DNA of 64,000 nucleotides from Thermoanaerobaculia bacterium (GCA_963664405.1 OY761158.1:1248001-1312000), one strand, 5' to 3'. Shown: positions 3,126-48,118, counted from the stretch's first letter. The notes: generated from the letters alone by a model not told the origin. Program-made: numbers and translations.

Positions 3126-3972
3126 ATGATGCGGCATCTTGTCTGCGCGTTCTCTCTGTCTCTGCTGGTGCTTCCTGCTGGTGCCTCTCCTCCACCCCCG
3201 GAGATGGTCGACATCCCGGAGTTTCAGGCTTGCCGCACCGTCGGGTTAATAACGCTGAACCCCCCGGAGCCCGACCAACCCGCGATGTTTGCACTAGACG
3301 TTGATCTCGACGCGTTCCCCCAAGCAAAGTGCAACGACGGTTCAGGAGCCGTCTTCTGGGTGCGCCGCTATGAGACCCTGGGGGCGCAGAGCGTGGAGAA
3401 CCAGAACAAGTGGTGGATCCACCTCCCTGGCGGTGGCGCTGCGGTGCGCGGCTTCGGCGCCGCCGACCGCTACTGCACTAACGCGTCGCGGATGAGCACG
3501 CTGGATATAGACAGGGGACCCATCGCACCGCGGAGCATCGCCGCCGGCCCCCCGGAGAACCGCTTCCGCAATTGGAACCACGTCTTCATCTACAACTGCA
3601 GCTCGGACCGCTTCGTGGGCGCCGCCGGCGCGGTGGCGACCAGCGGACAGCCCACGGGCGCCTCCGATCCGGTCGACTACACCATTCATTACAACGGCGC
3701 GCACATCCTCGACGCCGTCCTCGACACCTTGAAGCGCCACGACGGCGTCGTCAGCTACATCGACCGGGAGGGGAAGACACGGGTGATGCCCAACCTCGAC
3801 GCGGCCACGACCGTGATCTTCGCCGGCGAGGCGGCCGGCGCAACCGGCGTAATCCAGCGCGCCGATGATGTGCACGCGTCGCTTCTGGCGACGAACACCA
3901 ACTGCGTCGGCGAGTCCTGTGACGTCGACGTCGGTGCCGTCGTCGACGGCGCATATCTCCCCAGCCAGGAGA
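3126..3972 (+). pseudogene. 5' half of a secreted pectinacetylesterase/Notum-like protein, interrupted by the island
   Basis: GGAGG RBS, signal peptide, CNDGS, HLPGGG, NWNHVFIYNC; joins in frame to 46718..48118. Confidence 0.75.
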
Positions 3973-4009
3973 GCTGGCAACGCGGATTCAAATCCCGTTG
4001 GGGACACCA
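3973..4009 (+). other. 3' fragment of a tRNA (Glu-like) carried in the att site
   Basis: GCTGG-CAAC-GCGGA-TTCAAAT-CCCGT-TGGGGAC-A-CCA = anticodon 3' strand, variable loop, T-arm, acceptor strand; no 5' half. Confidence 0.75.
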
Positions 4010-4303
4010 GCATCTAACTTATTCTCTATTCTTAACTTACTCTTGATCCATGAATGAGTCTAGATTGTAGGCTCCGGGCTAGAGTAGGCAATAGGTAGGA
4101 TTCGAGCAGCGATTTCTCGCTTCTGGGTGGCGGATCAAGACGTGAGCACTGGCGGACTCTCGAAGACCCTTCTTGAGGTTCTTTCTACGCCCCGGTTTGC
4201 CAGCCGAGTCCTCTTCGCTGCGGCTGTCGGTGCGGTGGTCCCGCTCTTCGGTCAGTAGTGGGTTCCCAGCATAGAAGGTCTGGAGGGGGCATTGGGGTAC
4301 CTC

Positions 4304-5241
4304 TGAGCCGGTCCGGGAATTGTGGACACCTGTAGAAGGCGCGAGAATGCGCCGAGGAGGTGTTCGTGATGAGCAAGCGTCGTCGTTTCAGCCGTGAATT
4401 CAAGTTGGACGTGGTTCGAATGGTGATTGAAGGCGGCCACAGCGCGACAGAGGTGTCGAAGGATCTGGAGCTTCGTCCGGAGATGGATGGTTCGTCGCTG
4501 GGTGGCGCAATATGGCGAGGACCGCGAGCAGTCGTTCCCGGGTCTTGGCCGGCAGAAAGAGCGGGACGCAGAAATGGCGAAGCTCCGTCGCGAGCTGGGC
4601 CGCGTGCGGGAGGAGCGAGACATTCTAAAAAAAGCGGTGGCGATCTTTTCGGAGCCCCGTCGATGAGGTTCGCGTTCATCCGGCAGCATCGGGCCGAGTT
4701 CTCGGTGCGCCGGATGTGTTGCGTCCTCGAGGTATCGACGAGTGGGTACTACGCTTGGCTTGTCCGGCCGGAGAGCGAGCGGAGTCGGGGAGATCGCCTT
4801 CTCAAGTCGAAGATGGCAGGAGAGTTCAAGGAGTCGCGCGAGACGTACGGTTCTCGGCGACTGGGTCGATCGGTGGGGTGCGGTCGCACTCGTTCCCGAC
4901 GCTTGATGCGCGAGGGCGGGCTGGTGGCGAAGAAGACCCGGCAATTTCGTGTGTGCACGACCGACTCCTCGCATTCGCTGCCCGTGGCCGAGAACCTTGT
5001 GGCCCAAAACTTTACGGCCACCGGGCCCGACCAGATCTGGGCGGGCGATATCACTCAGATTCGGACGAGGGAGGGCTGGCTGTACTTGGCGGTATTGCTC
5101 GATCTGTTCTCTCGCAAAGTTGTGGGCTGGGCGAAGAGCTCCTCGCTCGAGTCGAGCTTCTGTCACCGCGCGTTAGAACGTGCCGTGGCGAGCCGCCGAG
5201 CGGGCCCTGGCCTGATCCATCACACGGATCGAGGCAGCCAG
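4304..5241 (+). mobile_element. IS3-family element, truncated (orfA frameshifted, orfB ends at HTDRGSQ)
   Basis: TG..GTGGACACC left end; RRRFSREFK; A7G slippery site at ~4627; WAGDITQI motif. Confidence 0.85.
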
Positions 5242-5880
5242 GGCGGATTCAACTGGTCGTCGCAACATCTCGTGATGGAGGTGTTTCGATGGGAGTTGGC
5301 AAGTGTCAGGGTGCGATTCGAGCGATGCGTGGCCAGATGTGGTCACCTGGCCGGCCCTCGACAGCGCGGCGCGAGGACCGGATCCGGTTCTGGGAGACGA
5401 TCGCTCGTGGGGCGTCCAGCGAGGACGCCGCAACAGAGGCTGGGGTGTCGCCGGCTGTCGGATCGAGATGGTTCAGGCAAGCTGGTGGAATGCGACCTAT
5501 CTCGTTGGCTCCGGTGTCGGGGCGTTATCTGTCGTTCGCCGAGCGTGAAGAGATCGCCATCCTTCACGCTCAGCATGTTGGGGTACGTGAGATCGCTCGA
5601 CGTCTGGGTCGTTCACCGTCGACGATTTCGCGGGAGCTGCGCCGCAACGCGGCGACTCGCAGCCGTGCCATAACCTATCGGGCCACGACTGCGCAGTGGC
5701 ACGCGGAGCGGCGCGCCAGCCGTCCGAAGGTCTCCAAGCTTGCCGCGAACGACGCCTTGCGTGAGTACGTGCAGAACCGCCTCGCCGGCGTGATCGCAAG
5801 GCCTGACGGGGAGCTGGTGCCGGGTCCGGAGGTGCGTTGGATCGGCCGTCGGCACGGCCGTCGCCAGGATCGGCGTTGGG
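5242..5880 (+). mobile_element. IS30-family element, 5' fragment
   Basis: GGCGGATTCAACTGGTCGTCGCAACA end; RYLSFAEREEI..LGRSPSTISRELRRN HTH. Confidence 0.8.
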
Positions 5881-5904
5881 CTAAGCCACGACGCTGGAGC
5901 ACCT

Positions 5905-6530
5905 TGCAAAAACTTCCCTAGAGCTTCCCGACCCCGACCGTCCGCGACGTGAACCACCGTCCCGTGACTGCTGTCCACGACCACCGTGACGTACTCGTGC
6001 CGGCGTTGAAACGACGTCTCGTCTACACCCAGATGGCGGGTCGGGCGCAGCGTTCTGCGGGCCAATCCTCGGCCCACGGCACGCTGCTGAACCCCGTCGA
6101 TCTGATCCCAGCTCAAACGCAGAAGCCGGGCAACAGCCGAGAGATTCGACTCTCGAAGCCAGTCGATCGCCAGCCGCTCGAACTGTGCCGTGAAGCCCGA
6201 GCCGACCTCGGCCCACGGCACACGAACCTGGCGCACGCCGTGATCTCCGCACTTCACACGAGGAACCTCCGCGACCAGAACCGTCATGTACTGCATCGTG
6301 TCGAGGTGACGCCACTTGCGCTCACGCGTGTCGTAGCGCGGACTCGCCGCTCCGCATTCCGGACACGCTAGCTTCCCTGACCCGTTCTCCAAGTGCACTT
6401 CCACCGTCTCTGGACCTAGCTCGACATCTGTCACATGCCACGGCTCCTCGATCCCAAGAAGCTGGGCGTAAAGCTCTCGATCTCGCATACTCGCAGCATA
6501 CGATCAACCCACACGAAATCCCGAAGAGCC
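5905..6530 (-). mobile_element. ISL3-family element, 5' fragment
   Basis: GGCTCTT end at 6530; CPECG zinc finger, WRHLD, GVDETSF. Confidence 0.85.
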
Positions 6531-6842
6531 TTTTTAGGATCGCATGCTCCTGCTTCACTCGAGCCAGCTCGCGACGAAGGCGCTTGACCTCCTCCGCGGG
6601 ATCGGGCTCCGATCCCAACGACTCCCGGTGCTCGAAATGCTTGCGCCAACGGCGAATCTGCTCCGCACGCACATCCAACTCCCGAGCCACCTCGACGACC
6701 GAACGGCCCGTCCCGTAAGCGAGGCGGACCGCCTCGCGCTTGAGCTCCTCGCTGAATCTCCTCCGTGACTGACCCATCTCCTGAACACCTCCAAGTCCAT
6801 TCTCGGACTTTTAGCGGTGTCCACCAAATCGGGGTAGCTCCA
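6531..6842 (-). mobile_element. IS3-family left end + orfA
   Basis: TG..GGTGGACACC end; RRRFSEELKREAVRL; ends at ILK in the A-run. Confidence 0.8.
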
Positions 6843-6959
6843 CGTAGCCCCCGAGGGCATTTCCGCCCGGGCAAGCTGGGTACACAGCTCTTCGAAGCCC
6901 TTGTCTCGGCCGCCGTTCAGGGGCCTGATACTGTTCCAGTCAAGAGCAACTCGGCTCAT
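6843..6959 (-). pseudogene. N-terminal remnant of a nuclease-like protein (possible defence nuclease-ATPase)
   Basis: DWNSIRPLNG..GFEELCTQLAR resembles N-termini of Mrr/REase-like STAND proteins; cut by the IS3 end. Confidence 0.45.
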
Positions 6960-7003
6960 AGGAGAAGCGCCTCAGAAGTGGATGTCCGTTGCGTCGTTTT
7001 AGG

Positions 7004-7490
7004 GCGTTGTTGCACGAGTCGTGACTGGCCCGCACGATGCCCAATCGAAAGGGTCCTCACCTGCCGTTGCGATACGACACTGGTCGGCCGAGGGCGGTCA
7101 TCCGATTGAAGGATCTCACAGCCGAGGACGACCTTACTCCCCTGCCCAGCTGGACTACGGGCGCGAAGGCCATCTCCGATGATGGACTTGTAGCGGAAGA
7201 ACGCGTTCTCCACCCGGCCCTGACGATGGTACCCTGACGCCCGCTTCCAGCGGCGCTGGCCGAGCGTCTTCACCAAATGGATTGTCCGATCCCGCGCGGG
7301 CGACCGCGGGCCGTGGCCAGACACGTTCGCCGTCCTGGCCGGTGGGACGACGACCATCGCACCCCGCGCCCTTGCGGTCTCGTAGAGGCGTTGTTGCACG
7401 AATCGTAATTGGCCCGCGCCGATCTCGATCCACAGCTTCTCCACCGGCCGATGCGGTACGACATTGGCCTGCCCAGCCCAGTCATCTGAT
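7004..7490 (-). mobile_element. IS5-family transposase 3' fragments with two tandem right ends
   Basis: WKRASGYHRQGRVENAFFRYK; GCGTTGTTGCACGA repeated at ~7004 and ~7388. Confidence 0.7.
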
Positions 7491-7494
7491 TCAT

Positions 7495-7684
7495 AGTAGG
7501 TCTGCTCGCTGATCCCGAGCTTCTTGTACATCTGTGGGATGTGCAGCCCTCGGCTCAGCTCGACCTCGGCCTGCCGCAACTTGCTGACGATCTGTTCCGT
7601 GCTGTAACGCTTGGTGGGCATCCCCGCCTCCTTTCGCCCAAGAGCCTAACGCTGGATCTGGACTCGTCCAAGGGGGGCAGGTCA
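7495..7684 (-). mobile_element. IS3-family (IS407-like) left end + orfA fragment
   Basis: TGACCTGCCCCC end; KRYSTEQIVSKLRQAE. Confidence 0.75.
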
Positions 7685-7716
7685 GATTCGACGGAGTGTT
7701 CGCTATATGAGAACAT

Positions 7717-8258: not shown

Positions 8259-11399
<3,141 letters not shown>

Positions 11400-11407
11400 T
11401 AGGACCT

Positions 11408-12634
11408 TTACGGCATCCCCGGTACGGTTGCGCGCAAGCGAAGTTCACCGGAAACAAGCTGTGGCAGAAGCAAGTCACGTAGTCCAGCTAGATATTGGTT
11501 TGTTTTTTCCTTATTTAGTATCGAATAGTGAATCGGCACTATTGTTTCATCGAACAGACGCCTGAGGTGTTCTCCCACGTCGATTATCTTCAACGCACTG
11601 AAAGTGGATTTGTTCATATTCTGAAAGACTGAACCTCCACTGCCAACCAGCATTATTTCCGACGCGAGCCGCCTACAAGACCAATACAAATATGTGCCGG
11701 CCCTGCAATCGTGCGGAACGATGCTATTGATTTGCTGGTTGGTCTAAGTCTCTTGATGGTTCAATACGACTAGCCCAGGTGTGGCGATGCAGCTAACCGA
11801 AATGATTCCAGGTGGTAGCGTCTTATTACCCTGCGAGTCGGCTCCATACTTGGAAAGCATAGTCTCAGTCTTGACTGCATAGACCTTGCCGTGCATATCG
11901 GGGATCTTCAGGAAGGGAATATCATTTCCGTAGAAATCCAGATTGCGAGTGCTCGGAGTCTTCCCGGTAACAATCTTACCGAAACTGCTTAGTGGTTTCA
12001 CTTTCCACCCCGCCGGTATCTCACCCAGTTCGGACTCGACAAGCCGATCAGGAAACAGGTCGGAAAGATGCCGGGGTAATCCCGTATCGCGGCCCTTCAT
12101 CTTCGCCCGGACCGGATCGAAATCGACGAACCAGGACTTGAACAGCGCCTGGGCCATCGCCTCCAGTGTCTCGTTCATCCGCCGGTTCAGATCGATCTTG
12201 TCGTCGAGGTTGCCGAGGACGTGCGCGATGGATCGCTGTTCGTAAGGTGATGGAACTATAGCTGGGAGGCCGTGAATATGGTTGCGATTCAGCGTTGGTA
12301 CACTACTTCCAACATTGAATTGTACAAGATCAAGAGATTTCAGAAAGTAGTAGCAGAACCGAGGATCATTTCCATTGAAGTTCTTTACCCATAGGGTCGT
12401 ATTCAGTGGCCAAAAGTCTTCCTCAATAAATTGACCTCCACCAATGCTTCCTGAACGACCGATCACGACACCGGGCCCTTTTACTTTCGCTTCTTCGTGC
12501 CTACCAACGGGACCTGTGGATGCAATGACTGGATAGTTACCTAGCTTGCGTTGGGATGTGGGTAAATCGAATCCTCTTTGCAATGTGACCACATCTCCAA
12601 GCGTCGTATAGCGCCACTCACTCCACACAGCCAA
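11408..12634 (-). pseudogene. hsdS: Type I R-M specificity subunit with in-frame TAG at 11744-11746
   Basis: Two-TRD layout; the frame continues TNQQINSIV after the TAG and ends with [14 protein letters not shown]. Confidence 0.9.
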
Positions 12635-15600
12635 GGTCCCTTAGACTGGCGGCAATTGCCGTGTCGAGCCGTGCACCTTCAGTTTGCTGCTCGTGAAGCT
12701 GTGCCACGAGCCGTTTCATCTTGTCCTCGAACGGTTCACCGTCGTCCTCTTGGGGCTCTACGCCGACATAGCGGCCTGGCGTCAGCACATAGGCGTGCTT
12801 GCGCATCTCATCCAACCCCTCTCTGCCAAGATGCTTGAGACATCTCGCCACCCCTCAAATAGAGTAGGGCGGAGAGGTGAAACCTGATGTCTGAAGAGAG
12901 GAAGATGGAAGAGATGAGATCAGCAAGCACGTCCATTGCGGTCCGGGGCGAGGAGGAGGTTTCCCAGCTTCCCCCGTGCGCCCAGCTGGGGTCCGCGGAA
13001 GCGCCGACGGGCGAGCGTAGCGAGCACGGAGACGCAGCAGCGGGCGCCATCTGGGCGCGGCCGAGCCCTGTGTTGGATCCTGAGGTGGCCGCCAAGCCAA
13101 CGCGGCGGACCTTCACGGCCGAGTACAAGCTGCGAATTCTCGAAGAAGTCGATCTCGCCACGCCTGGCGACATCGGCGCGATCCTGCGCCGCGAGGGATT
13201 GTACAGCTCGCACTTGACGGCCTGGCGCAAGGCACGTAGGACCGGCGCTCTGCGAAGGCTGGGCCGAAAGCGAGGGCGCAAGGCGAAGCAGGCCGATCCA
13301 CAGGCCAAGAAGATCGAGCAACTGGAAAAGGAGCTCTCCCGTACTCGCGAGGCGCTACGCAAGGCAGAGCTGATCCTCGAAGTGCAGGGAAAAGTTGCCG
13401 GGCTGCTGGGCTTCAACCTCGAGGACGGGAGGAACTCCTGATCGCCGCCGCCGAGTTGGCGTTGCAGGTCGGCGTCAAGCCGTCCTGTGTCGCTCTCGGC
13501 GTGGCACGGGCGACTCTGTACCGTCGTCGGAAGCCAACTACCGGGCCGCAGCCCCGGCCAACACCCGCCCGGGCTCTGAGCGAGGACGAGCGCCAAGCCG
13601 TCCTGGACGTCCTGGACTCGCCTCGTTTCGTCGACCGTGCCCCCGCCGAGGTCGTCGCCACGCTCCTGGACGAGCAACGCTACCTCTGCTCGGAGAGGAC
13701 CATGTACCGCATCCTCGCTGCGCGAGCTCCGGTGCGCGAGCGGCGCAACCAGCTTCGCCACCCCGACTACACCAAGCCGGAGCTGGTGGCGGCCGCCCCC
13801 AACCAAGTCTGGTCCTGGGATATCACCCGGTTGCGGGGTCCTGAGAAGTGGAGCTACTACTACCTCTACGTCCTGCTCGACATCTTCAGCCGCTACGTCG
13901 TCGGCTGGATGCTCGCTCCCCGCGAGAACGCCAATCTCGCCGGTCGCCTCATCGAGGAGACCTGCTGCAAGCACGACGTCAAACCTGAGGTGCTCACCCT
14001 GCACAGCGATCGGGGCTCCCCGATGACCGCCAAGTGCACGGCTCAGCTACTCGCCGATCTGGGACTCACTCAGTCGCTCAGCCGGCCCCAGGTCTGTGAC
14101 GACAATCCCTTCTCCGAGGCCCAGTTCAAGACCCTCAAGTACCACCCGAGCTTCCCCTCCCGATTCGCCAGCCAGGAGGCCGCCCAGGCTTTCTGCAGGA
14201 CCTTCTTCCCTTGGTACAACACCGAGCACCGCCACGGTGGGATCGCACACCTGACCCCTCACGGCGTCCACCACGGTCGAGCGGAGCAGGCCCTTGCCGC
14301 ACGGCAACTCGCGCTCGATGCCGCCTTCCAAACTCACCCAGAACGCTTCCTCCGAGGGCGACCCATCGTCTCGCCTTTACCTGGAACCGTATACATCAAC
14401 CGGCCTGACGATACGCAGGCCTCGACCGAAGAGGACCTTCACTAATTTATGACTCGAGGTGTCTCAAAGTTCTTGACAGGTTCCGAACGATGCGCTCTTG
14501 CAGAAGCCGGGAATGTCGGCGCAGGCGGCGCTAACGTCTGCCGTGCGCCAGGCGTGGTAGGTGCCGGCGATACGGGCAATGTCCTCGTCGGTCAGCTCAC
14601 GGTGCGTCCGGTCCACCATCCGGCCGAGCTTCCTCGCGTCGATGAACAGGATCTCGCCCTGGCGCTTGCGTCGGCGCGCCAGGAACCACAGACAGGCGGG
14701 AATCTGGGTGGAGTAAAAGAGCTGACCCGGCAGTGCAATCATACAGTCCACTAGCTCCGCCTCGATCAGGTTCTTCCGAATCTCTCCCTCGCCCGATTGG
14801 TTTGAGGACATCGACCCGTTGGCGAGCACGAACCCCGCGACGCCCTTCGGCGCTAAGTGGTGGACCATGTGCTGGACCCAGGCAAAGTTGGCGTTGCCCT
14901 TCGGCGGGATGCCGTAGCGCCAGCGCTTGTCCTCGACCAGCCTGTCGCCGCCCCAGTCCGAGACGTTAAACGGGGGATTGGCGAGGATGAAATCGGCCTT
15001 CAGGTCCGGATGGCGGTCGTTATAGAAGCTGTCGCCGTGGGCGATCTGCCCCCCAATGCCTCGTATGGCCAAGTTCATCTTCGCGAGCCGCCACGTCGTG
15101 TAGTTCGACTCCTGCCCGTAGATCGAGATGTCGCCGCGCGCCTTGCCGCCGTTGCCGTTTCCGCTGGAGTGGGCGCGAATGAACGAGATCGACTGCACGA
15201 ACATTCCCGAGGAGCCGCAGCAGGGATCGTAGACCCGCCCTCGGTAGGGCTCCAGCATCTCGACGAGCAGCTTGACGACACAGCACGGGGTGTAGAACTC
15301 GCCGCCTTTCTTGCCCTCCGCGCTCGCGAACTGCGAGAGGAAGTACTCGTAGACGCGGCCGAGGACATCTCGGGAGCGTGCTTCGGCATCCCCGACACGG
15401 ATGTTTCCGATCATGTCGATCAACTGACCGAGACGCTGCTTGTCCAAGGCAGGCCGCGCGTAGTCCTTGGGCAGCACCTCCTTCAGCCCCGGGTTGTCGC
15501 GCTCGATCGCGGCCATGGCCTGATCGACGGTCTGGCCAATGGTCGACTGCCGCGCCTGGGCCTTCAGGTGCGGCCAGCGGGCTTCCTGCGGCACCCAGAA

Positions 15601-15840
15601 GATGTTCTCTGCGATGTATTCATCGCGGTCCTCCGCAGCGTCCTCGCCCCACCCGGCCAGCACCGACGCGTGACGCTCCTCGAAGGCGTCCGAGATGTAC
15701 TTCAGGAAGATTAGGCCGAGCACCACATGTTTGTACTCGGCGGCATCCATCGAGCCTCGGAGCGCATCAGCCATCGCCCACAGCTCGGCCTCGTAGCCGG
15801 TTGTTGCCCCGCTATCGGAACGTGTGCTCGCTGTCTTCAT
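12618..15840 (-). pseudogene. hsdM: Type I R-M methyltransferase interrupted by an IS
   Basis: [18 protein letters not shown]; removing the IS restores ..[19 protein letters not shown]. Confidence 0.93.
12817..14485 (+). mobile_element. Complete IS3-family element (orfA 12887..13441, orfB 13456..14445), 3-bp target duplication AAC
   Basis: IRs TGCCAAGATGCTTGAGACATCTCG / CGAGGTGTCTCAAAGTTCTTGACA; WSWDIT, HSDRG; AAC at 12814-16 and 14486-88. Confidence 0.92.
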
Positions 15841-19923: not shown

Positions 19924-19980
19924 GGGGCCAGCCTAGATTAGGAAATTTCATTGTGGCACGATATACAGAACACGGGCGCG

Positions 19981-32030: not shown

Positions 32031-32031
32031 C

Positions 32032-32122
32032 CTCCGGAAATGATGGCTATCATTTCCTGCGGCTAGTTATCTTTTGGCGCCGAGGACGGCGCACTTTGAG
32101 CTTGCTTCTTATTCGCTTCGGG
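32032..32122 (+). repeat. ~90-bp imperfect direct repeat, copy 2
   Basis: Matches 30292..30384. Confidence 0.9.
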
Positions 32123-32327
32123 TATCGTTGTCGTTTGAGGCTAGAGGAGTCTTCGCGGCAGGAAAGGCAACGCTGCCCGAAGCGCATGAGAAGCAAGTCC
32201 CGAGTGCGCCGTCTGCGGCGCCATGTTCAGCATCCGTAGGAAGTGATACCGATCACTTCCGCAGGATGGGTCAGCGGGCACATTCGAACGAAAACCTACG
32301 GTTTCTTTTCGTAGGAGAGTCCTTCAG

Positions 32328-32915
32328 TCAAGTCTGATCTTCTCCTCCGGCCGCCGCCACGTAGTTGTAGAGCGTTGGCTTGGAGATCCCCATCAGCTTG
32401 CAGATCTCACGCAGGGTGTGCTTCCGTTCGCGATAGAGGCGAACCGCCAGAGCGCGCTTGGACTCATCGAGAGCCTTGGGACGGCCCCCTTTGCGCCCGC
32501 GAGCTCGGGCAGCCTTCAAACCAGCGTGCGTCCGATCTCGGATCAGATTTCGCTCGAATTCAGCGAGGGCTCCGAAGATGTGGAAGGTCAGCTTCCCGGA
32601 GCTGGACGTGGTGTCAATGGATTCGTGAAGGCTCCGCAGCCCGATCCCACGCTCATCGAGCTCGCCAACAAGTTGGATTAGATCCTTGAGTGAGCGCCCT
32701 AGGCGATCGAGTCGCCAGACCGTGAGGGTATCGCCGCGTCGTACATAGTCCAACGCGGCTGCCAGCCCCGGCCGGGCTGCTTTCGCGCCACTCATCGTAT
32801 CTTCGAGGATCCTGTCGCAGCCGGCCTTCTGGAGAGCATCTCGCTGCATGTCCAGATTCTGATCGTCGGTCGAGACTCGTGCATATCCAATCTGCATAGT
32901 GAGCGTCACAGGCAA
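32328..32915 (-). CDS. tnpR: Serine resolvase
   Basis: GYARVSTDDQ, RLDRLGRS, C-terminal HTH; divergent from the Tn3 transposase. Confidence 0.95.
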   Translation of the reverse strand: MPVTLTMQIGYARVSTDDQNLDMQRDALQKAGCDRILEDTMSGAKAARPGLAAALDYVRRGDTLTVWRLDRLGRSLKDLIQLVGELDERGIGLRSLHESIDTTSSSGKLTFHIFGALAEFERNLIRDRTHAGLKAARARGRKGGRPKALDESKRALAVRLYRERKHTLREICKLMGISKPTLYNYVAAAGGEDQT

Positions 32916-33054
32916 GAAAACCGTTGGAAGCTGCGATATTCTATCGTAGATTGTTTTACCGAGATATTTGCCTACCAGGGCGGCTTTTCACCCTGAAAGC
33001 CGTCGACAACCATGAAGGGCAGAAAAACGGACGTTTTCTTGACCCTGTATTCAG

Positions 33055-35157: not shown

Positions 35158-35350
35158 GTAGACCAACAGAGGCATCTGCGTGCTGCAAAGTGTCGGCTGT
35201 CGATATGTCGCGATCAGCCGCAATCTTCGCGGCGAAGACCTCCCCCTTCTCCAGGAATGCCGCACGACCACGGGTGAAGAGACCGCCGATGCCCTCCGCC
35301 AGATCCTTCTCCTTGCAAGAGGCTTACTTGTTTTTTAGAATGGAAATATC

Positions 35351-37994: not shown

Positions 37995-38109
37995 AGAGGT
38001 GGCGCTCACAAGCCAGACGCACTAGCCGCCCGGTAACGAGCTCGCCAGCACAAACCGCCTCAGCGTAGGCCGTCGCCGGGTCAGTTTGGACGATCGGGTC
38101 TGGGATCAT
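37995..38109 (-). pseudogene. Terminase large subunit N-terminal stub
   Basis: DPATAYAEAVCAGE..GRLVRLACERHL overlapping the terS end. Confidence 0.75.
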
Positions 38110-38569
38110 CGCCCCTCAGATACCTCGCCCCTATATCCTCATCCTCGTCAACGGGCTCAGAGATATCTAGCACTTGTGCGTCTTTTGGCGACAAGCCAAG
38201 ATCAGCCTGGAACGAGCGCATGAGCTTGTATTCTCGGTTTAGTGGCTGTAATAGGTGATGCTGCGCCATATTCACCTGCCCATTTACGCCCGTATGAAGC
38301 ACCTGTGGGCCATCTTCTTTTAGTATAGCTTCCATCTCCCGGCAGCGCGCCCAGGCCGCGCACCAGCCAGCCATAGCGCCCTCGTATTTAGCCCTGAGCG
38401 TACCGTCCTCCGCCATGCGAAAACAGAGCTTGCGCCATATGACCCTTGCCTTATTCGACAACTCAGCGGGCGGCTTCGGGTGCACAGTGTCCACGGGCGG
38501 TCGATGCAGGGAGCGATCCGCCCGAGCCGTTCCCTGGAGCTCCTTCTGTGCCTGGGTCTTACGTCTCAC
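38081..38569 (-). CDS. Phage terminase small subunit (P27-like), copy 2
   Basis: K.LQGT.RADR, PKPPAELS, DLGLSP. Confidence 0.82.
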   Translation of the reverse strand: MRRKTQAQKELQGTARADRSLHRPPVDTVHPKPPAELSNKARVIWRKLCFRMAEDGTLRAKYEGAMAGWCAAWARCREMEAILKEDGPQVLHTGVNGQVNMAQHHLLQPLNREYKLMRSFQADLGLSPKDAQVLDISEPVDEDEDIGARYLRGDDPRPDRPN

Positions 38570-38956: not shown

Positions 38957-39049
38957 AGAAGGAGACTTCGCCCAGCCTCCTCGAGCAGCGCGGGGTCGTC
39001 TTCTGCGAGCAGCCTCATCAGGCTCGCAGCCTCGGCCAGGCTAATCTAA

Positions 39050-41054
39050 GGGTCGGCGCGGAAATAACTTCACATTATCGCCGGAGCGTGTGAGGCCGAG
39101 GCGCCACAGGGCGGTCGCTGCATTGGAGGTGGTGGTGAGCTGAGCCCAGGCTGTGGGGCAAGCTCTTCCTGCTCGGTTCGCGGTCTCGGCGAGAGGGTGT
39201 AGTTCCACTTTCCTAGGAAGTCGCTCCTGGCCACCGCGAGCTGCAGCATTTCCTTGTCCGATACCCTGACTCCTTTCTGGTATTGGCGTTGATCACGGCA
39301 CGGCTCGACGCGCAGTCCGGTGGATGTCGTCGTGTTGCGGACGAGGTTGACGAGGATCTCGAAACTCTCGAGAGGAACTCCGGCCCAGTTCTTGCTGATC
39401 TCGCTGAACATCCTGTGCTCGATGGGATTCCATTTACTGGTGCCAGTTGGATAGTGGGCGACGGTGATGATGAGGCCGCACTTGTCTACGAGCTTCTCCT
39501 GGAGGTACTTCTTCCAGGCTCGAAGCCGTGCGCCGTTGCTTGCGCCGCTGTCGGCAAGAATGAGGAGACGCTGAGACGCCGGATAGTGAGATCGACCGTA
39601 TTTGAGCCACCAGGTCGCGATGCTGTTGACAGCGAACTCCGGCGTGTCCGACGACTGTCCGAGGACGAGAACGCCGAAGTTCCTCTGAAGATCGTAGATC
39701 CCATAGGGGGAGGCGATGGCGAGAGCTTCGGACCGGAAGTCGTGATCCTTGACCCGCTTGGCCTCGCGGCACCATGTCTGTCCCTGGTTCTTGAACCGAC
39801 CGATCAGCTCCTTCTTCTTCGTATCGACGCTGATGATCGGGTCGCCAGCGCTTGTGAAATCCTCGCGCAGTCGCTTGATGGCCTTGAACTGTGCATCACG
39901 ATCTGGGGAGTTCCCCGAAGACAGACATTTCCTATTGCTCTTGAGGGAATAGTTCAGGTCTGCGAGCAATCGACGCACCACCGTAGCCGATACGATGATG
40001 TCAAGGCGTTCGGCAAGGCATTGGGCCACCTTTGCAGCGGTCTCGTGCGTCCATCTTTTTGATGACATGGGATCACCAGCTATATCGGCCTCGAGTATGG
40101 AATGGATTCCATCGACTATCTCGGGCGTTTTTTTTCCACTCGTTGGTTGCCACCGCCTGCTCTTCGAACTCTTCCGCGCTCCACGGAGCCGCCGAAGAGC
40201 TCGCGACGTCCTTTTGCGACTGTATGAGGGTCCAGGTCCAGAAGATCGGCGATCTTCCGGTCGCCGCCATGCCCGAGCTTGGTCGCTTCCAGGCCAGCGA
40301 AGAGCCGCCGCTGGCGTTCGTCTAGCAGGCTGAAGAATAAAACGATGGCAGCCCTGAGCTCCTCGGGGAGCACTTCTGGAACGAGGCTGGCAGCTACATC
40401 CTGGAGAGCCTGCCGTTCGTTGCGCATCAGCTTCTGCTGACGACGGCGCCCTGTTTCCGAGCACAAGTATACGAACCTCTTCCCAACTCTGGATCGTACG
40501 ATTCTCTTGCGACGAACGAGGTGCAACATCGCGTGCTTGACCTCGACCTGCAGCAGGAGCTCGAGTTCAGAAGCCGTATAGCCGGCAGCGGACCGGTCCA
40601 CGGCAGCCACCGCAGTTTCGAGGAGGCTGCCATGCCGACTGAACCTCGCCGAACCGCACGACCACAAACCCAGATCGTCGAAATCGGGAATCTCGTTCAA
40701 GGTATAGAACCGCCCTCGATCCGAGTAGCTGGCCAAATAGCCCAATCGAGACAGCGAACGGTAGACCGTCATGGTGGCTCGGGTTCCCATGGCGTCCTTG
40801 AGCTCATCCATGGTGGCCATCTGTTCGCTCATCAAGAGCTCGCGCACTGTTGCATCACGATCTTCGGCTCGTACCATTTGGTATAGTTCCCCTTCCAAAA
40901 GAGGTGACAGGGAAAACTATACCAAATGCGGGCAGGGCTATGCTAGCTCTAAACCTTGCAAACAAGGCGCGTACCGGAGGATTATGCGGTGGCTGAAGAA
41001 GGGGGCAGTGGTATGGTCACCCCAGATACTGGAAACTTATTTCCGCGCCGACCC
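39050..41054 (-). mobile_element. Complete ISAzo13-family element, two ORFs, 3-bp target duplication TAA
   Basis: Perfect 18-bp IR GGGTCGGCGCGGAAATAA; ISVDTKKKELIG, SKWNPIEHR; A8 run in the ORF overlap. Confidence 0.92.
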
Positions 41055-41580
41055 TAAGGAAACTTCGCAAGGTGTAACTCAGCTCTCGTAATCACTTCTT
41101 CTCTTCCAGCATCCCAGGGTAATGAGTGTTGCCTCGGTGTCCTCGCAGAATCCTTATTCGACCTTTTGGCAGTTTTGGCAGTAGGTAGGTCTTTCTGCGG
41201 GGCGAGAACGTCGTCCACCATGCGAGCGAAGGTCACTCGCTCGGCGGTGTCCTGGTCGTGGCCAGCCGCCAGCTCGAGCTCAAGCCAGTAATCGAAGTAC
41301 TCACGGCACTCGGCCGATAGGGTTGGTAGGTTCTTGCGAACGTAGTCGATAGGGTAGCGCAGATGGCGCGGATTGATCCTTACCTCTCGTCGCGGAGCTA
41401 GGTAGCCGCAGGAGCAAGCAAGCACTCGAACGCCAGAGGCGAGGAGATCGGAGCAGTGTCGACAACCACCCTGCCCGATTGAGTCGTGGACAGCTTTAGC
41501 AGCTTTAGCAGCTTTAGCAGGGGTACGTAGCTCCGCGACGACTTCGTAGGGATCAAAATCAGCGAGGATCATTTCCCGTG
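41054..41580 (-). CDS. Hypothetical satellite protein with CxxC..CxC
   Basis: Coupled to the helicase stop; start uncertain. Confidence 0.45.
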
Positions 41581-43048
41581 GATCATCCATACGTCGGAGC
41601 GCCTCTTTCCGTCGACCTCGGCTCCGTCCGGTACCCTCGCGAGCCAACCGTGCTCCTCGAGTGTCTCGACGACAGAGGTCGCAGACTTTCGATCCCTTAT
41701 CGCTGCCGGTCCACGCTGGTAGATGTCGGGCAGAGACACCAGCGCTTCCGTCCAGCCATCCCTAAGCCAAGCCAGAACTCTTCCCGCCAACAACAACTTC
41801 TCGTCCACGTGTGCCACGTCCGTCAGTCTTTGGGCCTCGCTGCCGTAGTAGAGAACAAGCTCGATGCCTCGGCATATTTGGTCGGCTGAGACCGTACGAC
41901 CGTCTGGATCCTCAACGACAGCAAGCACTCCAGCCAACCGAGCCGCATGCTCCGGCATCTTGTTCGCGAAGGGCCTGATGCTCGCCAGCGACCCGCTGGG
42001 ACCCCGATCTTTCTCGACACAATCGGAGAACTTCACCCATGTCATTGCTGCTTTCGGGTCCATCCGGAGTGTCGCTGGCTCAAGCCCCAGCGCCCGATCC
42101 GAGCAGGGCATCGGCCGGTTAAGAAGTGCCAGCATCCAATCCACATACCGATCGAAGTTTTCAGTGCTCTCTTGCGAAACCTCTCGATGGAATCGAGTTC
42201 CCGCCAGCGACTTTGGCGCTGAGATCAGCATGCGCGACAGTAGTCCCTGATCCTGAAGTCGCTCGTCGGCCAGCAAGTCGCTGGAGAGCTGCGGCTGGAC
42301 CATGAGGTGAATAGTTAGGCGTCGACCTGGGAGATTTGAGCTCCCGTCGCCAGCCCGTACCCTCTTGATCGCCTTGCCATCCCAGAGGGCGCTGAGTCCC
42401 GCGGCAGTCTTAATGCGATTGTCCTTGGTCATGCCAAAGCCACCGAGAAACTGCCCCCCTTCTGAAGAGAACATTCCGAGGGACGGTGACCCTATTGCGA
42501 ACAGCTTTATGAGGCCCTCGAGCGTTGGTTCATCCATCGTCCGAATCGGTGGCGCCGGCGGCTCAGGCTTCGGACCAAGATCTCCCAGCTGCTTCGTCTT
42601 CTCCTCGGTGCCGATCTTCTTGTTCTGGAGAATCTGTTTCCGCTCGGTATCCCAGACCGCTGCGACATTCTCGTGATCCTGGCGCTCTTGGTCGTAGGCG
42701 CTGGCCAGGGACTTCTCTAGCATCGTGACTGGTTCGAGAGCGTAGTCATCAGATGTCGTCTTGCGGTCGCCGCTCTCGGCCACCGTCAGGAAGAACTCTG
42801 ACAATGGCCGTGGTGAGCCTACGGGCGGGTGGATATTGCAGAAGGGTTGGGCTGCCAGGGTTACGGCTGCGAGGACGCTTTGCGCGCAGATACCGTCAGG
42901 GGCCTGTGTCTTCTCCTGGATCGCGGCTGCTGCAGGCGCCAATCTCGGACCAAGGGCTTCGATCGGATATGGCTCCGGATCCGGAAGCTCTCGAATAAGC
43001 GGTTCTGGGTCGGTACCCCTGCTAAAGCTGCTAAAGCTGCTAAAGCTG
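41491..43048. repeat. Perfect 36-bp inverted repeat pair (41491-41526 / 43013-43048) built of CAGCTTTAG x3
   Basis: Read directly on both strands. Confidence 0.92.
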
Positions 43049-43119
43049 GTAGGCGCGACGGCGGGCGGTTGGTACACGTCGGCGTCCGCTATTACGCGGC
43101 GCACATCTGCTTCGGACAT
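41569..43119 (-). CDS. DUF3987/YfjI-family replication helicase-like protein
   Basis: YPIEAL, AESGDRKTT, TLEGL, SSEGG, QGLLSRML. Confidence 0.88.
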   Translation of the reverse strand: MSEADVRRVIADADVYQPPAVAPTSFSSFSSFSRGTDPEPLIRELPDPEPYPIEALGPRLAPAAAAIQEKTQAPDGICAQSVLAAVTLAAQPFCNIHPPVGSPRPLSEFFLTVAESGDRKTTSDDYALEPVTMLEKSLASAYDQERQDHENVAAVWDTERKQILQNKKIGTEEKTKQLGDLGPKPEPPAPPIRTMDEPTLEGLIKLFAIGSPSLGMFSSEGGQFLGGFGMTKDNRIKTAAGLSALWDGKAIKRVRAGDGSSNLPGRRLTIHLMVQPQLSSDLLADERLQDQGLLSRMLISAPKSLAGTRFHREVSQESTENFDRYVDWMLALLNRPMPCSDRALGLEPATLRMDPKAAMTWVKFSDCVEKDRGPSGSLASIRPFANKMPEHAARLAGVLAVVEDPDGRTVSADQICRGIELVLYYGSEAQRLTDVAHVDEKLLLAGRVLAWLRDGWTEALVSLPDIYQRGPAAIRDRKSATSVVETLEEHGWLARVPDGAEVDGKRRSDVWMIHGK

Positions 43120-44078
43120 GTCTCTGTCCCTTCGGAGTTGAGTAGTAAATCTAAGAAGTCCTTGCCCGCAGTGGGCGGTTTACAAATGCGCACTACGCGC
43201 CCCTCGCCATGTGCCCGCTTGGCTGCCGCCTCGGCGGCGCGCTCGCCAGCTTCATCGTGATCGGCGGCGATGATGACTTCACGCGCAAGCGGTAGCTGCG
43301 GCAGCTCGATCTTTCTAATGCCGCCTGCCGAGAGCGCTGCCCACGTTGGCTCTCCCGTCGCCTGCTGGACGGCCAAGCCGGTTTCGATGCCCTCGGTGAT
43401 GGCGAGCTCTTCGCCGGCCGCAGCCAGCCTTACCGCGCCGCCCATCACTGGCCCCATCATCTTCCTCTCCGGCTTCACCGGCGCCTTGCCCGAACCATCG
43501 CGCTGGAGGTACGTGCGATGCACCGCAACGACTTGACGGCTCTCACCCACCGCTACAGCTGCCAGCAAGGCGGGCCACCGCTCACCGCCCTCCTGGTGGA
43601 ACTCGTCCGGCAGGAATGCCAATGTCGGCGGGTATGGCGGCTCGAGGCCACGGCTGCGCAGATAGCTTTCGGCGATGGAGTCCGGGAGCTCTTGCCGGCG
43701 GGCCCAGATCTCGCGGGCCAGGGCAGAGTTTCGGGCTGCTTTTGCGTTGCGCTCGGCGGCGACAACAGACTCTGTCTGTCTCGGTGCAGATGGATAATCT
43801 GCACCGACAAAGCCGCCAGTGAGTTCTTCTACGGCTTCGCGGAAGCTCAGGCCACTTAACCGCTGCGCGAGCTTGATGACGTCGCCACCCTCGCCACAAC
43901 CGAAGCAGTGGTAGAGGCTGCGCTCAGGGTCAACACTGAACGAAGGCGTCTTCTCCTTGTGGAGGGGGCACAGTGCAGAATACTGGCTGCCCTGCTTCTC
44001 GAGCCTAATGCCGTGCTGCTCGCACACACGGAGGATCGGCGCGCGGCGTGCCGCCTCGATGTCGAGGAGCGCGGTCAT
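43092..44078 (-). CDS. CHC2 zinc finger + Toprim primase
   Basis: CPLHKEKTPSF..CFGC, TEGIETGL, AADHD. Confidence 0.9.
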   Translation of the reverse strand: MTALLDIEAARRAPILRVCEQHGIRLEKQGSQYSALCPLHKEKTPSFSVDPERSLYHCFGCGEGGDVIKLAQRLSGLSFREAVEELTGGFVGADYPSAPRQTESVVAAERNAKAARNSALAREIWARRQELPDSIAESYLRSRGLEPPYPPTLAFLPDEFHQEGGERWPALLAAVAVGESRQVVAVHRTYLQRDGSGKAPVKPERKMMGPVMGGAVRLAAAGEELAITEGIETGLAVQQATGEPTWAALSAGGIRKIELPQLPLAREVIIAADHDEAGERAAEAAAKRAHGEGRVVRICKPPTAGKDFLDLLLNSEGTETCPKQMCAA

Positions 44079-44271: not shown

Positions 44272-44529
44272 TCATCCGGTAGACCCTCGGCCGGCCATCT
44301 CCTGCCGGACCCTCTCCAGGCGCGTTGTGGTGACATGCGTGCGCGCGCTCACCCATGCCGAAACGTCGCTCGGTCGATATCTCACGAGCCTTCCCACTTT
44401 GCAAAACGGCAAGGGCGGAGTGATACCGCGCGACCTCCACGCCTCGAGCGCGGCAGGGGATACGCCTAAGATCTCAGCGGTTTGCGTGGGCGTAAGGAGC
44501 GGTGCGAGAGAATCTGCGTTGAAACCCAT
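44272..44529 (-). CDS. Excisionase/AlpA-like HTH protein
   Basis: LLTPTQTAEILGVS..WR..KVGRLVRYR. Confidence 0.85.
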   Translation of the reverse strand: MGFNADSLAPLLTPTQTAEILGVSPAALEAWRSRGITPPLPFCKVGRLVRYRPSDVSAWVSARTHVTTTRLERVRQEMAGRGSTG

Positions 44530-45290: not shown

Positions 45291-45309
45291 CTCGGGGTTA
45301 CACCCTTCC

Positions 45310-46530
45310 TTAGGCTCTCTCTTTGGAGCCCATCTCTACCACCTCGCCCCCGGGGGAGCCTTCAAGTGCCCGGGCTATTTCGGATGCGATGCGCTCTGCA
45401 CCGGCGCGTACTGGATCCTCGGCGAGATGTGCGTAGCGGGCCGTCGTCTGTGGGCTCGAGTGCCCTAGGACCTTACCGACAATGTAGAGCCCTAAGCCGG
45501 CCGACGCGCCTACCGACGCGAAGCTGTGGCGGAGGTCGTGCAGCCGCACGTCTTCTAGCCCGGCGCTCTCGCGGACGCGCTGCCAGACGTGTTGTAGCGT
45601 AGCTAAGGGCTCTCCGTCGCGGCTGCCGAAGCAGACGTAGGGGTTGCCCGCTTGGCGCTCTGCGTTGGCCAAGAGTTCGCGGACGGGGGCAGTCAAGGGC
45701 AACGCCTTGCGGCCCGTCTTCGAGTCTGGCAGGACGATGAAGCCCCGCTCCCAGTCGACGTCATCCCAGCGCAAAGAGAGCACCTCGCCGGCCCGCATAC
45801 CAGTTAGGAGTAGGAGACGCAGAGCGAGCGTCGTGGTGGGTAGTTGGTCGATCTCCTTCTCGGTCTTCTCGATCGCCTCGGCTACGCGGGCTAGCTCCTT
45901 GCCGGTGAGGAACCGCTCCAATCGGTGCTCGGGGTAGCGAGTGACTAAGGCGGCAGGATTCGTTCCCTGAGCGCGTAGACCCCGCCGCTCGGCAAAGCCG
46001 AGCATTGCCTGTATGACACCTATCGTGTAGTTCGCGGTGCGCTTGGCGCGCCGGCCGATGGACCGATGGAGGCGCTCGACATCCTCTTGCATCAGCTCTT
46101 CGACCTCGATACGCCCAAGGGCGGGGATGACCTCTCGCCGAAGGATGCGGTCGTACTCGTAGATCGTCGAGGGCTTGCAAGTGGGGCGCAGGTGTTCGTC
46201 GAGGTAGAGCTCCGCGAGCTCGGCGACGGTGAGCTTGTCTCGTGCCGCCCGACGTTGGACGAGCGGGTCAAAACCGCGGGCAATCGCAGCGAAGTGCTCG
46301 CGGGCAATCGCCCTGGCCTCCTCGAGCCGGAATCTGCCTATCGGCCCAAGGGACATTCGCCGGTTGCGGCCCGACGGTGCTCGGTACTCGATGAAGTACG
46401 AGCGTGACCCCGAGGGCTTCACCCGGACGCCGAACCCCACCTGCTCAGTATCGCGTAGATAAACATCTCGTGCCGGGTCGGGTCGGCAGGAGTGAACTCG
46501 CTTCTCCGTGAGCTTGATGCGCGGCCGCAT
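45310..46530 (-). CDS. int: Tyrosine integrase with an arm-binding domain
   Basis: GFGVRV..SG, TGMRAGE, HDLRH, LGHS, TTARY. Confidence 0.95.
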   Translation of the reverse strand: MRPRIKLTEKRVHSCRPDPARDVYLRDTEQVGFGVRVKPSGSRSYFIEYRAPSGRNRRMSLGPIGRFRLEEARAIAREHFAAIARGFDPLVQRRAARDKLTVAELAELYLDEHLRPTCKPSTIYEYDRILRREVIPALGRIEVEELMQEDVERLHRSIGRRAKRTANYTIGVIQAMLGFAERRGLRAQGTNPAALVTRYPEHRLERFLTGKELARVAEAIEKTEKEIDQLPTTTLALRLLLLTGMRAGEVLSLRWDDVDWERGFIVLPDSKTGRKALPLTAPVRELLANAERQAGNPYVCFGSRDGEPLATLQHVWQRVRESAGLEDVRLHDLRHSFASVGASAGLGLYIVGKVLGHSSPQTTARYAHLAEDPVRAGAERIASEIARALEGSPGGEVVEMGSKERA

Positions 46531-46717
46531 GGTGGTGGATTTCTCCTCCGACAGTTTCCTACCCTGTGCCTACCTAGAGGGTAGGCGAGGGGTAGGATTG
46601 AGGTATCGGTTTTCATAGTACAGCATCGGGAATGGTATGGAAAGAGGCTTTACTAAAGGCTTTACTGGCAACTATTTAGAGGGCTGCATAGGGCTTCATC
46701 GGGGTCATCTACCCAGA

Positions 46718-48118
46718 CAGGAGACCTGGGACCACTCGACATCGCTTTTTTGCACCGGTGATCTGGACCAGGACGGGTTGGTGGACAACACCTGCACGTA
46801 CGAGGAGCTCCTTCAGTTCCGAGCCGAAACACAGATCCACGGGCCCATGCACGACCAGTCGTGTCTCGACTACCACGCGGGCGAAGAGTGGCGCTGTCTC
46901 AGCCAGCCCCATGTGCTCGAGAACCACGTCACGACGCCCTTTTTCGTGCGCACGGATCTGCAAGATAGGGCGCTCTACTCCGTTCAGGAGGCAATCAACT
47001 ACGGCGATCCGCCGGGGAATCCGCTGACCGCGAGCATCTGGGGCCAAATCATGCACGACCAGCTCACGGCCCTCGCCACCATTGATGCCACCGCCGAGGA
47101 GGGAACCGGCAATCTGGGCCCCGGCATCGTCGAGCCAGGGGTCTTCGGCCCGCAGTGCGAGCATCACAGCGCTCTCTTCGACACCTACCGCTCACATGAA
47201 GTCCTGGCGCCGTCGACCGCCGGCGACCTCAGTTTCAACCAGACCCTGTGGAACTGGTATACGGGCCAGGATCCGCAAACGGCAATAGTCCCCTTCGACG
47301 GGGCCGGGGTCCGCTACGAGCTGTGCCCCTGCAACCCGGACGTCGACACCGCCTGTCTCTTCGACGGCGCTTTCAAGGTCGAAGGAGAGATGATGAACTT
47401 CGCCAACCCGCCGGAGGGGTTCAAAACCGTGGTCATGAGCTTTCCAGGGGGCAGAGCCGAGTCCGACAAGGCGGTGTTCTTCGAATCCTTCACGGCCGGC
47501 AATTTCGAAGTCGGTGTCAAGATGGTCGATGCTTGCACTCTCCCCAGCGGACATCCCCTCCGATTCTACTGGGCGTTCTTGGGCGGCCTCACCAACGCCG
47601 GCACCGAGATGCGCATTACCGACACCGTAACCGACCAGGTCTATACCTGGTCCAACCCCTCTGGATCCTTCCCGCTTACCGAGGGAGACACTTCGGCCTT
47701 TCCATGTGTCGAAGGGATCCCCTCCGTGCCGTGCGTCGCCGGCGATGGGATCGCGTGTCTCCTCGGTGGACGCTTCCAGGTGGAAGGTGAGATGACCAAC
47801 TTCGCCAATCCCCCGCAGATCTTTCCCACGAGGGTGATGAACTTCCCCGAAGACCGGGCCGAATCGGAGCAGGCGGTCTTCTTCGAATCCTTCGACCCCG
47901 GAAATTTCGAAGTCGGGGTCAAAATGGTGAACGGCTGCGGTTTTCCCAAGGGACATCCCCTGCATTTCTGGTGGGTCTTCTACGGGGGCCTGACGAACGC
48001 CGAGACCTACATGAAGGTGACCCAGCTAGAAACCGGCCTGTTCGATGAGTGGCTCAACCCCGCGGGGACCTTCCCGCGGTCGGAGGGGCGGACCCAGGTA
48101 TTCCCCTGCGTTGAGTAG
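46718..48118 (+). pseudogene. 3' half of the split pectinacetylesterase-like gene, with two tandem ~130-aa C-terminal repeats
   Basis: TPFFVR.DLQD, GVFGPQCEHH; ACL..F.VEGEM.NFANPP..FPCVE twice. Confidence 0.75.

Follow-up and report, generated by a model that had tools for sequence, protein, structure and literature searches.

What becomes of a gene when an integrase-bearing element settles inside its coding sequence: is it lost, or does it come under the control of excision? The question is raised by a 64,000-nt stretch of the genome of a Thermoanaerobaculia bacterium (GCA_963664405.1 OY761158.1:1248001-1312000; hereafter the window, with positions counted from its first letter), in which a gene for a secreted esterase-like protein of the Notum/pectin acetylesterase (PAE) family is parted by a mobile island. 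An earlier account made from the DNA alone, referred to below as the sequence-only reading, had seen in this arrangement a candidate DNA switch. Its claim that one gene is split and would be rejoined in frame has stood, through collinear homologues and an empty-site contig, whereas the switch itself has gained no positive evidence. We consider the locus to be, in all likelihood, a site-specific and in principle reversible knock-out insertion of an island from a tRNA-directed integrase clade into the esterase gene.

The limits of the island are marked by a 23-nt repeat at 3955-3977 and 46707-46729 whose copies differ at three positions; the 46707-46729 23-mer has a single other match in the 64-kb window, and in 100 dinucleotide-preserving shuffles the mean number of matches was 0.00. 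Within the repeat the 7-mer CAGGAGA is identical at 3966-3972 and 46718-46724, and the DNA between these copies amounts to 42,752 bp. Mismatches at 3965 and 3973 tell the two copies apart and so confine the crossover to 3966-3972, and at both sites the bases flanking the 7-mer bound the crossover inside it. The right open reading frame (ORF), P0002 (46637-48118), lies in the frame that continues the left ORF, P0001 (from 3084), across the repeat; at present the left frame reads into the island and meets a stop at 4046. The rejoined product would comprise 746 amino acids (aa) from residue 15 of P0001, the start of the database gene call P0006, or 760 aa counted from the first TTG. The sequence-only reading had set the ends of the interruption at 3966 and 46724 and foreseen a product of about 746 aa with both halves open; those positions are exactly the two overlap copies, and the length is recovered from the P0006 start.

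Homologues in other genomes bear on whether the two halves belong together. P0001 matches the Pfam profile of the Notum/PAE alpha/beta hydrolases (PAE, PF03283) at E 7.5e-15 over profile positions 21-141 of 355, scoring 55.3 bits against a gathering cut-off of 26.6. Matches to P0001 occur in five of 41 genomes (the bacterium's own and 40 relatives). In one relative (G004) the P0001 match (68166-68846, 43%) is followed head to tail by the P0002 match (68880-69797, 40%) within one open frame of 810 aa, and in another (G002) both fall inside a single frame of 647 aa. BLASTP against the 778-aa G004 protein sets residues 67-293 of P0001 on 98-323 and P0002 on 292-774, and a six-sequence alignment returns the same collinearity. 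The G004 protein also aligns with human Notum across the GxSxG motif, where GSSAGG of Notum stands opposite GASAGG of the homologue; the serine of GSSAGG is, we take it, the Notum nucleophile. The insertion point lies in the hydrolase domain, 3' of this motif. From the reading frames and the homologues it is confirmed, at the level of sequence, that one gene was split by an integrase-bearing element and that precise excision would rejoin it in frame.

The uninterrupted orthologues that the sequence-only reading had proposed to look for exist as these single-ORF relatives, and several protein and contig searches yielded none closer. An exhaustive representative search returned 470 homologues, none above 48% identity except the truncated call from the bacterium's own genome. 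A protein homologue search gave no longer homologue of P0001, and a search with its residues 230-298 gave no shorter one; residues 24-230 of P0002 retrieved only the own genome's 445-aa call and a relative at 41%. No locus related to P0001 was confirmed among metagenome contigs or genome contigs, and a degenerate pattern for the right-flank peptide had 0 matches in metagenome contigs.

Public sequence runs supply a natural counterpart of the locus. Window 3500-4300 is present, at least in part, in eight runs: six, from two studies, contain 0.89-1.00 of its words, and two, labelled sponge metagenome, contain 0.10-0.12. Four runs (X1, X3, X4 and X5), all as Logan contigs, were compared with 2500-4400. 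X3, X4 and X5 each have one contig across this interval with 0 differences, which is the integrated form; they are near-identical runs from two studies, and one of them may be the assembly's own source. Record 4 of X1 is a 233-nt contig of depth 3 that can be aligned to 3810-3977, showing 7 differences, before it extends for another 65 nt; 29 of the 30 nt shown of this continuation are those of window 46730-46759, just right of the attR core. A population about 96% identical to the window has the esterase gene uninterrupted, joined exactly at the core, and the contig is a natural empty site. The stretch of the island arm that X1 leaves uncovered carries no weight in this comparison. The attB junction that the sequence-only reading had suggested seeking has in this way been found in a sponge-metagenome contig. 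The history of the island set out below is based on one integrated copy and this one short contig.

The recombination functions named by the sequence-only reading, an intact integrase and xis with GTAGG/CCTAC arm-like repeats at both ends, are borne out at the level of sequence. The integrase contains four Pfam domains, among them the catalytic (PF00589, E 3.6e-27) and arm-type DNA-binding (PF13356, E 1.2e-15) domains, and the catalytic positions R, K, HxxR, H and Y are present by eye. An ORF of 85 aa with a helix-turn-helix (HTH) domain of the HTH_17 family matches PHROG 66 (excisionase and transcriptional regulator) at E 4e-10, and a recombinase and a putative directionality factor would both be at hand. 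The arm repeats are real, with GGTAGGM four times at 46557-46597 and related copies at 4067-4100. No integrase above 38% identity occurs elsewhere in the bacterium's own genome, nor does one lie near its tRNA-Glu(UUC) gene.

The relatives of this integrase reveal where its kind usually recombines. Homologues (E<=1e-60) are present in 69 of 300 genomes of the same order, the best at 59% and 58% identity. We compared 29 relatives of 43-59% identity; among the 29 loci fetched, 24 have a tRNA 3' half that begins at the anticodon loop, in the correct geometry, 141-404 nt upstream of the int start. The half is that of tRNA-Glu(UUC) in two relatives, L030 (58% identity) and L033, and that of an Arg, Gly, Thr, Phe, Lys or Cys tRNA in others. 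The relatives have their own inverted-plus-direct arm repeats beside int, in the same layout as GGTAGGM of the window and made of different motifs. In the window, CAGGAGA occupies the position of the relatives' anticodon loop, 188 nt from the int start, and coding DNA follows; the attR flank is esterase coding DNA, and there is no regenerated tRNA gene with a displaced fragment at the other end. Judged by these loci, the island is a member of an integrase clade whose recombination sites are the anticodon loops of tRNA genes, and is lodged here in a coding site. Searches with the integrase gave only distant matches (24-44%) among genome contigs and none among viral contigs, where the tRNA-like arm, sought as an exact pattern, also had 0 matches. 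CAGGAGA combined with the tRNA-Glu stem had 6 one-mismatch matches in the 300 genomes of the order against 11 for a control, and the three that were read had no T arm after them.

The tRNA habit of the clade has left a trace in the island itself, which the sequence-only reading had missed. The segment at 3973-4009 comprises the 3' strand of an anticodon stem, a 4-nt variable loop, a T arm, an acceptor strand and CCA; an arm of the island carries, in other words, the 3' part of a target tRNA from anticodon stem to CCA. It agrees at 24 of 26 nt, by pattern search, with the only tRNA-Glu(UUC) gene of the genome (G000 2652992-2653068, minus strand). ARAGORN finds 0 tRNA genes in the window. In the segment, tRNA position 53 is an A and faces C61, a mismatch that would disrupt the T stem; the 53-61 pair is near-universal in tRNAs.

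Directly downstream of the real tRNA-Glu gene, 145 nt of DNA match the island's left arm at 81.5% identity. Copies of this arm with GGTAGG repeats occur at G000:C1:2652885-2653029, beside that gene, and at 2725906-2726025 and 880217-880327, the last two being weaker, and no related integrase lies near any of the three. IS21 and Mutator transposases, a DprA-like gene and a type I restriction (R) subunit adjoin the real tRNA-Glu gene, and the DNA there is a decayed sibling island. A possible leftward extension of homology past the junction of the 0.88-Mb arm copy found no support in BLAST and was dropped. Two further tRNA-like sequences may be recorded. At G000:C1:6516719-6516746 (L017 ~1499-1526) lies an isolated tRNA-Glu-like fragment of T arm and acceptor strand, with the island's T-stem variant, without the variable loop, preceded by CCTGG and followed after CCA by unrelated DNA. 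ARAGORN also calls a tRNA-Pyl (cta) at G000:C1:3207503-3207584 (minus strand), which may be a false call.

How an element of this descent could recombine with a coding sequence is suggested by the anatomy of the cores. attL reads CCAGC-overlap-GCTGG, which is the anticodon stem of tRNA-Glu around a different 7-nt 'loop', and attR reads CCAGA-overlap-CCTGG; the coding site shares the 5+7+5 geometry of the tRNA-Glu anticodon arm and 9 of its 10 stem bases. When attP and attB are modelled from the window coordinates, the two agree at 22/27 positions (left 9/11, overlap 7/7, right 6/9), and the attP model agrees with tRNA-Glu at 16/27 (5/11, 2/7, 9/9). Across the 6.78-Mb genome, with attL and attR set aside, agreement is never above 20/27, and never above 18/27 where the overlap is identical. 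The literature, cited here and below from excerpts, describes tyrosine integrases as enforcing identity in a crossover segment of roughly 7 bp, with off-target insertions occurring (PMC10111431), and overlap identity as a strict requirement of tyrosine recombinases, IntDOT excepted (PMC2817482). Because crossover identity is generally needed, and because a route through single-strand exchange would be expected to leave different overlaps at the two ends, we infer that attP carried CAGGAGA before this insertion.

The state of the interrupted gene is equally informative. At residues 248-252 P0001 reads GEAAG, and the GxSxG nucleophile is missing. P0001 was aligned with the 149 further proteins that the exhaustive search listed; at the nucleophile position 138 of the 149 carry Ser and none carries Ala, and three homologues have GESAG. 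The restored gene would be predicted not to function as a serine esterase, with Ala at this position. The sequence-only reading had itself entered GEAAG as counter-evidence that could reflect decay after insertion, and this reservation is strengthened by the comparison.

The sequence of events that we favour can be set out as follows. The island would have inserted between the nucleophile motif and the remaining fold by conservative site-specific recombination across CAGGAGA. Its ancestry lies in the anticodon-loop integrase clade, with tRNA-Glu(UUC) as the closest target type; the P' arm keeps the half that would rebuild the tRNA, whereas the overlap and the P-side half-site now agree with the esterase gene instead of the tRNA. 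An earlier secondary-site event may have been followed by adaptation of attP, as measured in Sa3int phages, whose attP adapts to an alternative attB after secondary-site integration (PMC8649754); specificity would then have moved away from the tRNA loop and the tRNA-restoring segment would have become a fossil. Transposons and insertion sequence (IS) elements would be later cargo, and a type I restriction-modification system is carried as well. The outcome would be an esterase knock-out, a fixed and decaying insertion in this lineage rather than a programmed switch. Reversal appears feasible in principle because the integrase, the xis-like gene and both cores are intact and the empty site has an exact, scar-free joint. 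Excision is presumably rare or absent now, and the decay of the esterase gene would have followed the insertion.

Other histories can be written for the same DNA. That the halves are unrelated genes, or the junctions artefacts of assembly or of rearrangement, for instance mediated by IS elements, is scarcely credible: the very many IS copies in the genome could drive rearrangements, but single ORFs of relatives contain both halves in order, the empty-site contig joins them exactly at the core, independent contigs from three runs of two studies span attL with 0 differences, and the cores have integrase-type geometry beside an integrase. The first two of these points also contradict the possibility, raised in the sequence-only reading, that the halves come from different genes. 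An unlikely history, though one with arguments of its own, is a one-off illegitimate off-target event, in which an attP with the tRNA-Glu loop recombined in spite of heterology and repair afterwards converted both overlaps to the host sequence. The site does mimic the tRNA-Glu anticodon stem with a 7-nt spacer, a decayed sibling arm adjoins the real tRNA-Glu gene, and off-target insertions of satellite integrases are documented (PMC10111431, excerpt). Only 2 of the 7 overlap positions agree with the tRNA loop, however, at a step for which overlap identity is described as a strict need except in IntDOT (PMC2817482, excerpt); single-strand exchange would predict unequal overlaps in attL and attR, and both are CAGGAGA; and attP matches the site at 9/11 positions left of the overlap as well.

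A conditional switch, in which the island leaves on cue and restores a functional extracellular protein as in comK/phi10403S, hlb/Sa3int and sigK/skin, is in our judgement very unlikely. It has the locus architecture on its side, in that the element interrupts an ORF, precise excision would restore the frame (in-frame cores) and the scar-free joint exists in nature (the empty-site contig). sigK/skin and mutL/SpyCI are also elements that split an ORF and whose precise excision rejoins it, and for them cue-dependent excision and a working gene after it have been demonstrated. Against a switch at the present locus stands the replacement of the nucleophile, Ser being almost general and Ala absent among the homologues. 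The clade is directed at tRNA genes, and the island still carries a tRNA-restoring segment that is useless here; the genes flanking the split esterase are probably decayed too, in a genome swamped by IS elements; and the same arrangement was found in no other lineage searched. As for excision junctions, which the sequence-only reading had also named as a check, the related X1 population has the scar-free joint, and the contigs of the three carrier runs X3-X5 contain neither an excised form nor an attB loose end among the rows shown (61 rows lie beyond these).

Several observations nevertheless weigh against the favoured reading, and the first three of them also count in favour of a switch. The excision set is intact as far as its sequence tells: integrase, excisionase-like gene, arm repeats and a 7/7 overlap. 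Both esterase halves, of ~0.9 and 1.4 kb, are still open. attB is the best match to the attP model in the genome, which would fit a dedicated target as well as an adapted one. No data here explain how the overlap came to depart from the tRNA loop at 5 of its 7 positions. The Ser-to-Ala replacement could mark a non-catalytic binding protein instead of decay. The carrier runs were seen as contigs, which drop rare variants, so that a minority of excised cells could be missed. Finally, no second example of the island lineage was found in the searches of genome contigs, viral contigs and the 300 genomes of the order. On balance, the knock-out insertion remains the reading that we favour; the features of the locus are collected in Table 1.

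Table 1. Position and content of the island, its attachment sites and the divided esterase gene in the window
Feature	Position	Strand	Content and remarks
5' half of secreted Notum/PAE-like esterase gene	3084..3972	+	Through the overlap, overlap included; Pfam PF03283 PAE
attL core	3955..3977	+	Left half-site, 7-bp overlap CAGGAGA (3966-3972), right half-site GCTGG
Vestigial tRNA-Glu(UUC) 3' half in P' arm	3973..4009	+	Directly right of attL core
P' arm with arm-type repeats	4010..4116	+	GTAGGC/GGTAGGA at 4067-4100
IS debris	4300..7700		IS3-like, ISL3-like and other transposase fragments, broken frames; Pfam rve/HTH_Tnp_1, ISL3; multi-copy in genome
Type I restriction-modification	8259..15840	-	hsdR 8259-11399, hsdS 11744-12634, hsdM 14464-15840 (Pfam)
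Truncated MmeI-like gene	18350-19303	-	Pfam MmeI_N/hel/Mtase, first part of methyltransferase profile only
Small-terminase gene copy 1	19426-19923	-	Terminase_4 E 4e-12
12.3-kb metabolic block	19974..32265	+	TetR, TonB-dependent receptor, DUF3604, MR/MLE enolase, metallo-beta-lactamase fold, sulfatase (Pfam)
Tn3-family remnant	32328..35277		Resolvase 32328-32915 (-); transposase 33055-35277 (+), cut short at 740 aa
Small-terminase gene copy 2	38081..38569	-	Terminase_4 E 1.8e-14; PHROG 83
2.0-kb IS with DDE_Tnp_ISAZ013 transposase	39046..41060	-	Pfam E 5.6e-111
Replication module	41569..44078	-	DUF3987 helicase-like 41569-43119; primase (CHC2 zinc finger, DUF7146, Toprim) 43092-44078
Excisionase/AlpA-like HTH protein	44272..44529	-	85 aa; Pfam HTH_17 E 5.7e-11
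Tyrosine integrase	45310..46530	-	406 aa, open; Pfam Phage_integrase, Arm-DNA-bind_3, SAM_3, Int_M
P-arm arm-type sites	46557..46597		Four GGTAGGM copies, two on each strand; two inverted, two direct
attR core	46707..46729	+	Overlap CAGGAGA 46718-46724, 188 nt from integrase start
3' half of esterase gene	46718..48118	+	Remaining hydrolase domain and two copies of ~130-aa C-terminal domain

The interior of the island combines what looks like a satellite-like backbone, composed of integrase, excisionase-like HTH gene, primase, DUF3987 helicase (with a match to PHROG 2373, DNA helicase) and small terminase, with a large amount of other DNA. No capsid or tail families were found among the island ORFs scanned, several of which have no family. 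IS elements and transposons have entered the island in large numbers: an IS3-like element of 1.67 kb, with 7 copies in the genome, sits at 12817-14503 between hsdS and hsdM, and the Tn3 remnant, with Pfam Resolvase, DUF4158 and only positions 2-124 of 389 of DDE_Tnp_Tn3, adjoins the metabolic block. The latter has a second copy of 98.8% identity at G000:C1:1632810-1645108, 0.38 Mb away.

Some details of this cargo stand apart from the argument above. The ISAZ013-type IS is present in 27 near-identical copies (at least 80% identity and length) in the 6.78-Mb genome, which points to a recent expansion of IS elements. Short interspersed repeats at 29111-29276, 30289-30395 and 32026-32122 have 131, 84 and 76 genome copies by the same thresholds and resemble miniature inverted-repeat transposable elements; the two among them of ~100 nt flank the sulfatase gene. 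Between the two Terminase_4 genes lie ~18 kb of foreign cargo, an arrangement that may stem from two satellite backbones in tandem or recombined with each other.

The surroundings of the island and the end of the divided protein also have features of their own. Residues ~230-493 of P0002 (47320-48118) form two tandem copies of a Cys-flanked domain of ~130 aa that belongs to no Pfam family, and it is mostly through this domain that P0002 is matched at 38 places in its own genome and at up to 54 in relatives. The nearest Atlas clusters to it are unnamed, mostly from Acidobacteriota and score 0.80-0.82; they are leads only. On the left side of the window a pyrroloquinoline quinone (PQQ)/cytochrome-c dehydrogenase at 1476-2924 (plus strand) extends across three frames (1476-2018, 1592-2278 and 2052-2924) and is probably a frameshifted pseudogene, and a BD-FAE esterase at 797-1444 begins at profile position 55. 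On the right side a sulfatase ORF at 48141-49094 (minus strand) covers only profile positions 181-300 of 301, its N-terminal part being missing.

Among known systems, the island is closest in design to the Islander class 'A' islands of the anticodon type, an anticodon-centred attP defining a major class of islands in tRNA genes (PMC4383910, excerpt). Both have a tyrosine integrase with an arm-binding domain, arm repeats beside int, a tRNA 3' half from the anticodon stem in an attP arm and a 7-nt crossover between the stem strands. The present island differs in lying outside a tRNA gene, in having CAGGAGA where an anticodon loop would stand and coding DNA as its int-proximal flank, and in a tRNA-restoring segment that rebuilds nothing and has a T-stem mismatch. 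Its gene complement recalls the phage-inducible chromosomal island (PICI) and P4-like satellites, which as excerpted carry int, an alpA/xis-like gene, primase, helicase and terS together with defence cargo, and whose integrase clade uses tRNA genes as well as protein genes as targets and also inserts off target (PMC10111431). Here there are two terS copies, large foreign cargo and no known helper, and the element is distant from the enterobacterial ones.

For the interrupted gene the nearest parallels are those of Sa3int phages and of comK. In Staphylococcus aureus hlb a tyrosine-integrase element also splits the ORF of a secreted hydrolase, excision can restore it, and attP shifts toward the new attB after secondary-site integration and then favours the new site (PMC8649754, PMC6597384, excerpts). 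Excision and adaptation were measured there, whereas here they are proposed from one integrated copy and one empty site; host, element type (here satellite-like, with no virion genes found) and ancestral target (here a tRNA) differ as well. With comK/phi10403S the locus shares a split ORF that recombinase-mediated precise excision rejoins in frame, but cue-dependent excision and a functional restored gene were demonstrated for comK (PMC7397523, excerpt) and here the catalytic Ser is missing. As a protein, the product resembles Notum and pectin acetylesterases (PF03283; PDB 4uza and others) in its Pfam PAE match and in the alignment of its homologue with Notum across GxSxG; the window copy differs from them in reading GEAAG, in being split and in its two extra C-terminal domains without a Pfam family.

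Gene-interrupting islands and phages, off-target or adapted att sites and integrase clades of mixed target are already documented in the excerpts at hand (PMC10111431, PMC8649754), and what the retained tRNA fossil adds to them is neat but modest. The locus offers a clean natural example of a tRNA-directed integrase system that ends in a protein-coding gene, with the anticodon-arm geometry kept and a new 7-bp crossover. It would be a natural counterpart of the experimental adaptation of attP in Sa3int and bears on how integrase targets may be predicted or re-programmed. A bolder possibility, to which we attach very little probability, is that the att site was re-specified from the anticodon loop of tRNA-Glu and that int and xis now flip a secreted, possibly non-catalytic Notum-like protein in this sponge-associated bacterium; such a re-specified flipping module would make this a tRNA-type island that has been retargeted and domesticated to switch a gene reversibly. 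For the host, whose genome is swamped by IS elements, the insertion means the loss, or at most the conditional use, of a further gene, and excision, if shown, would add a programmed DNA rearrangement to the biology of an uncultivated symbiont lineage.

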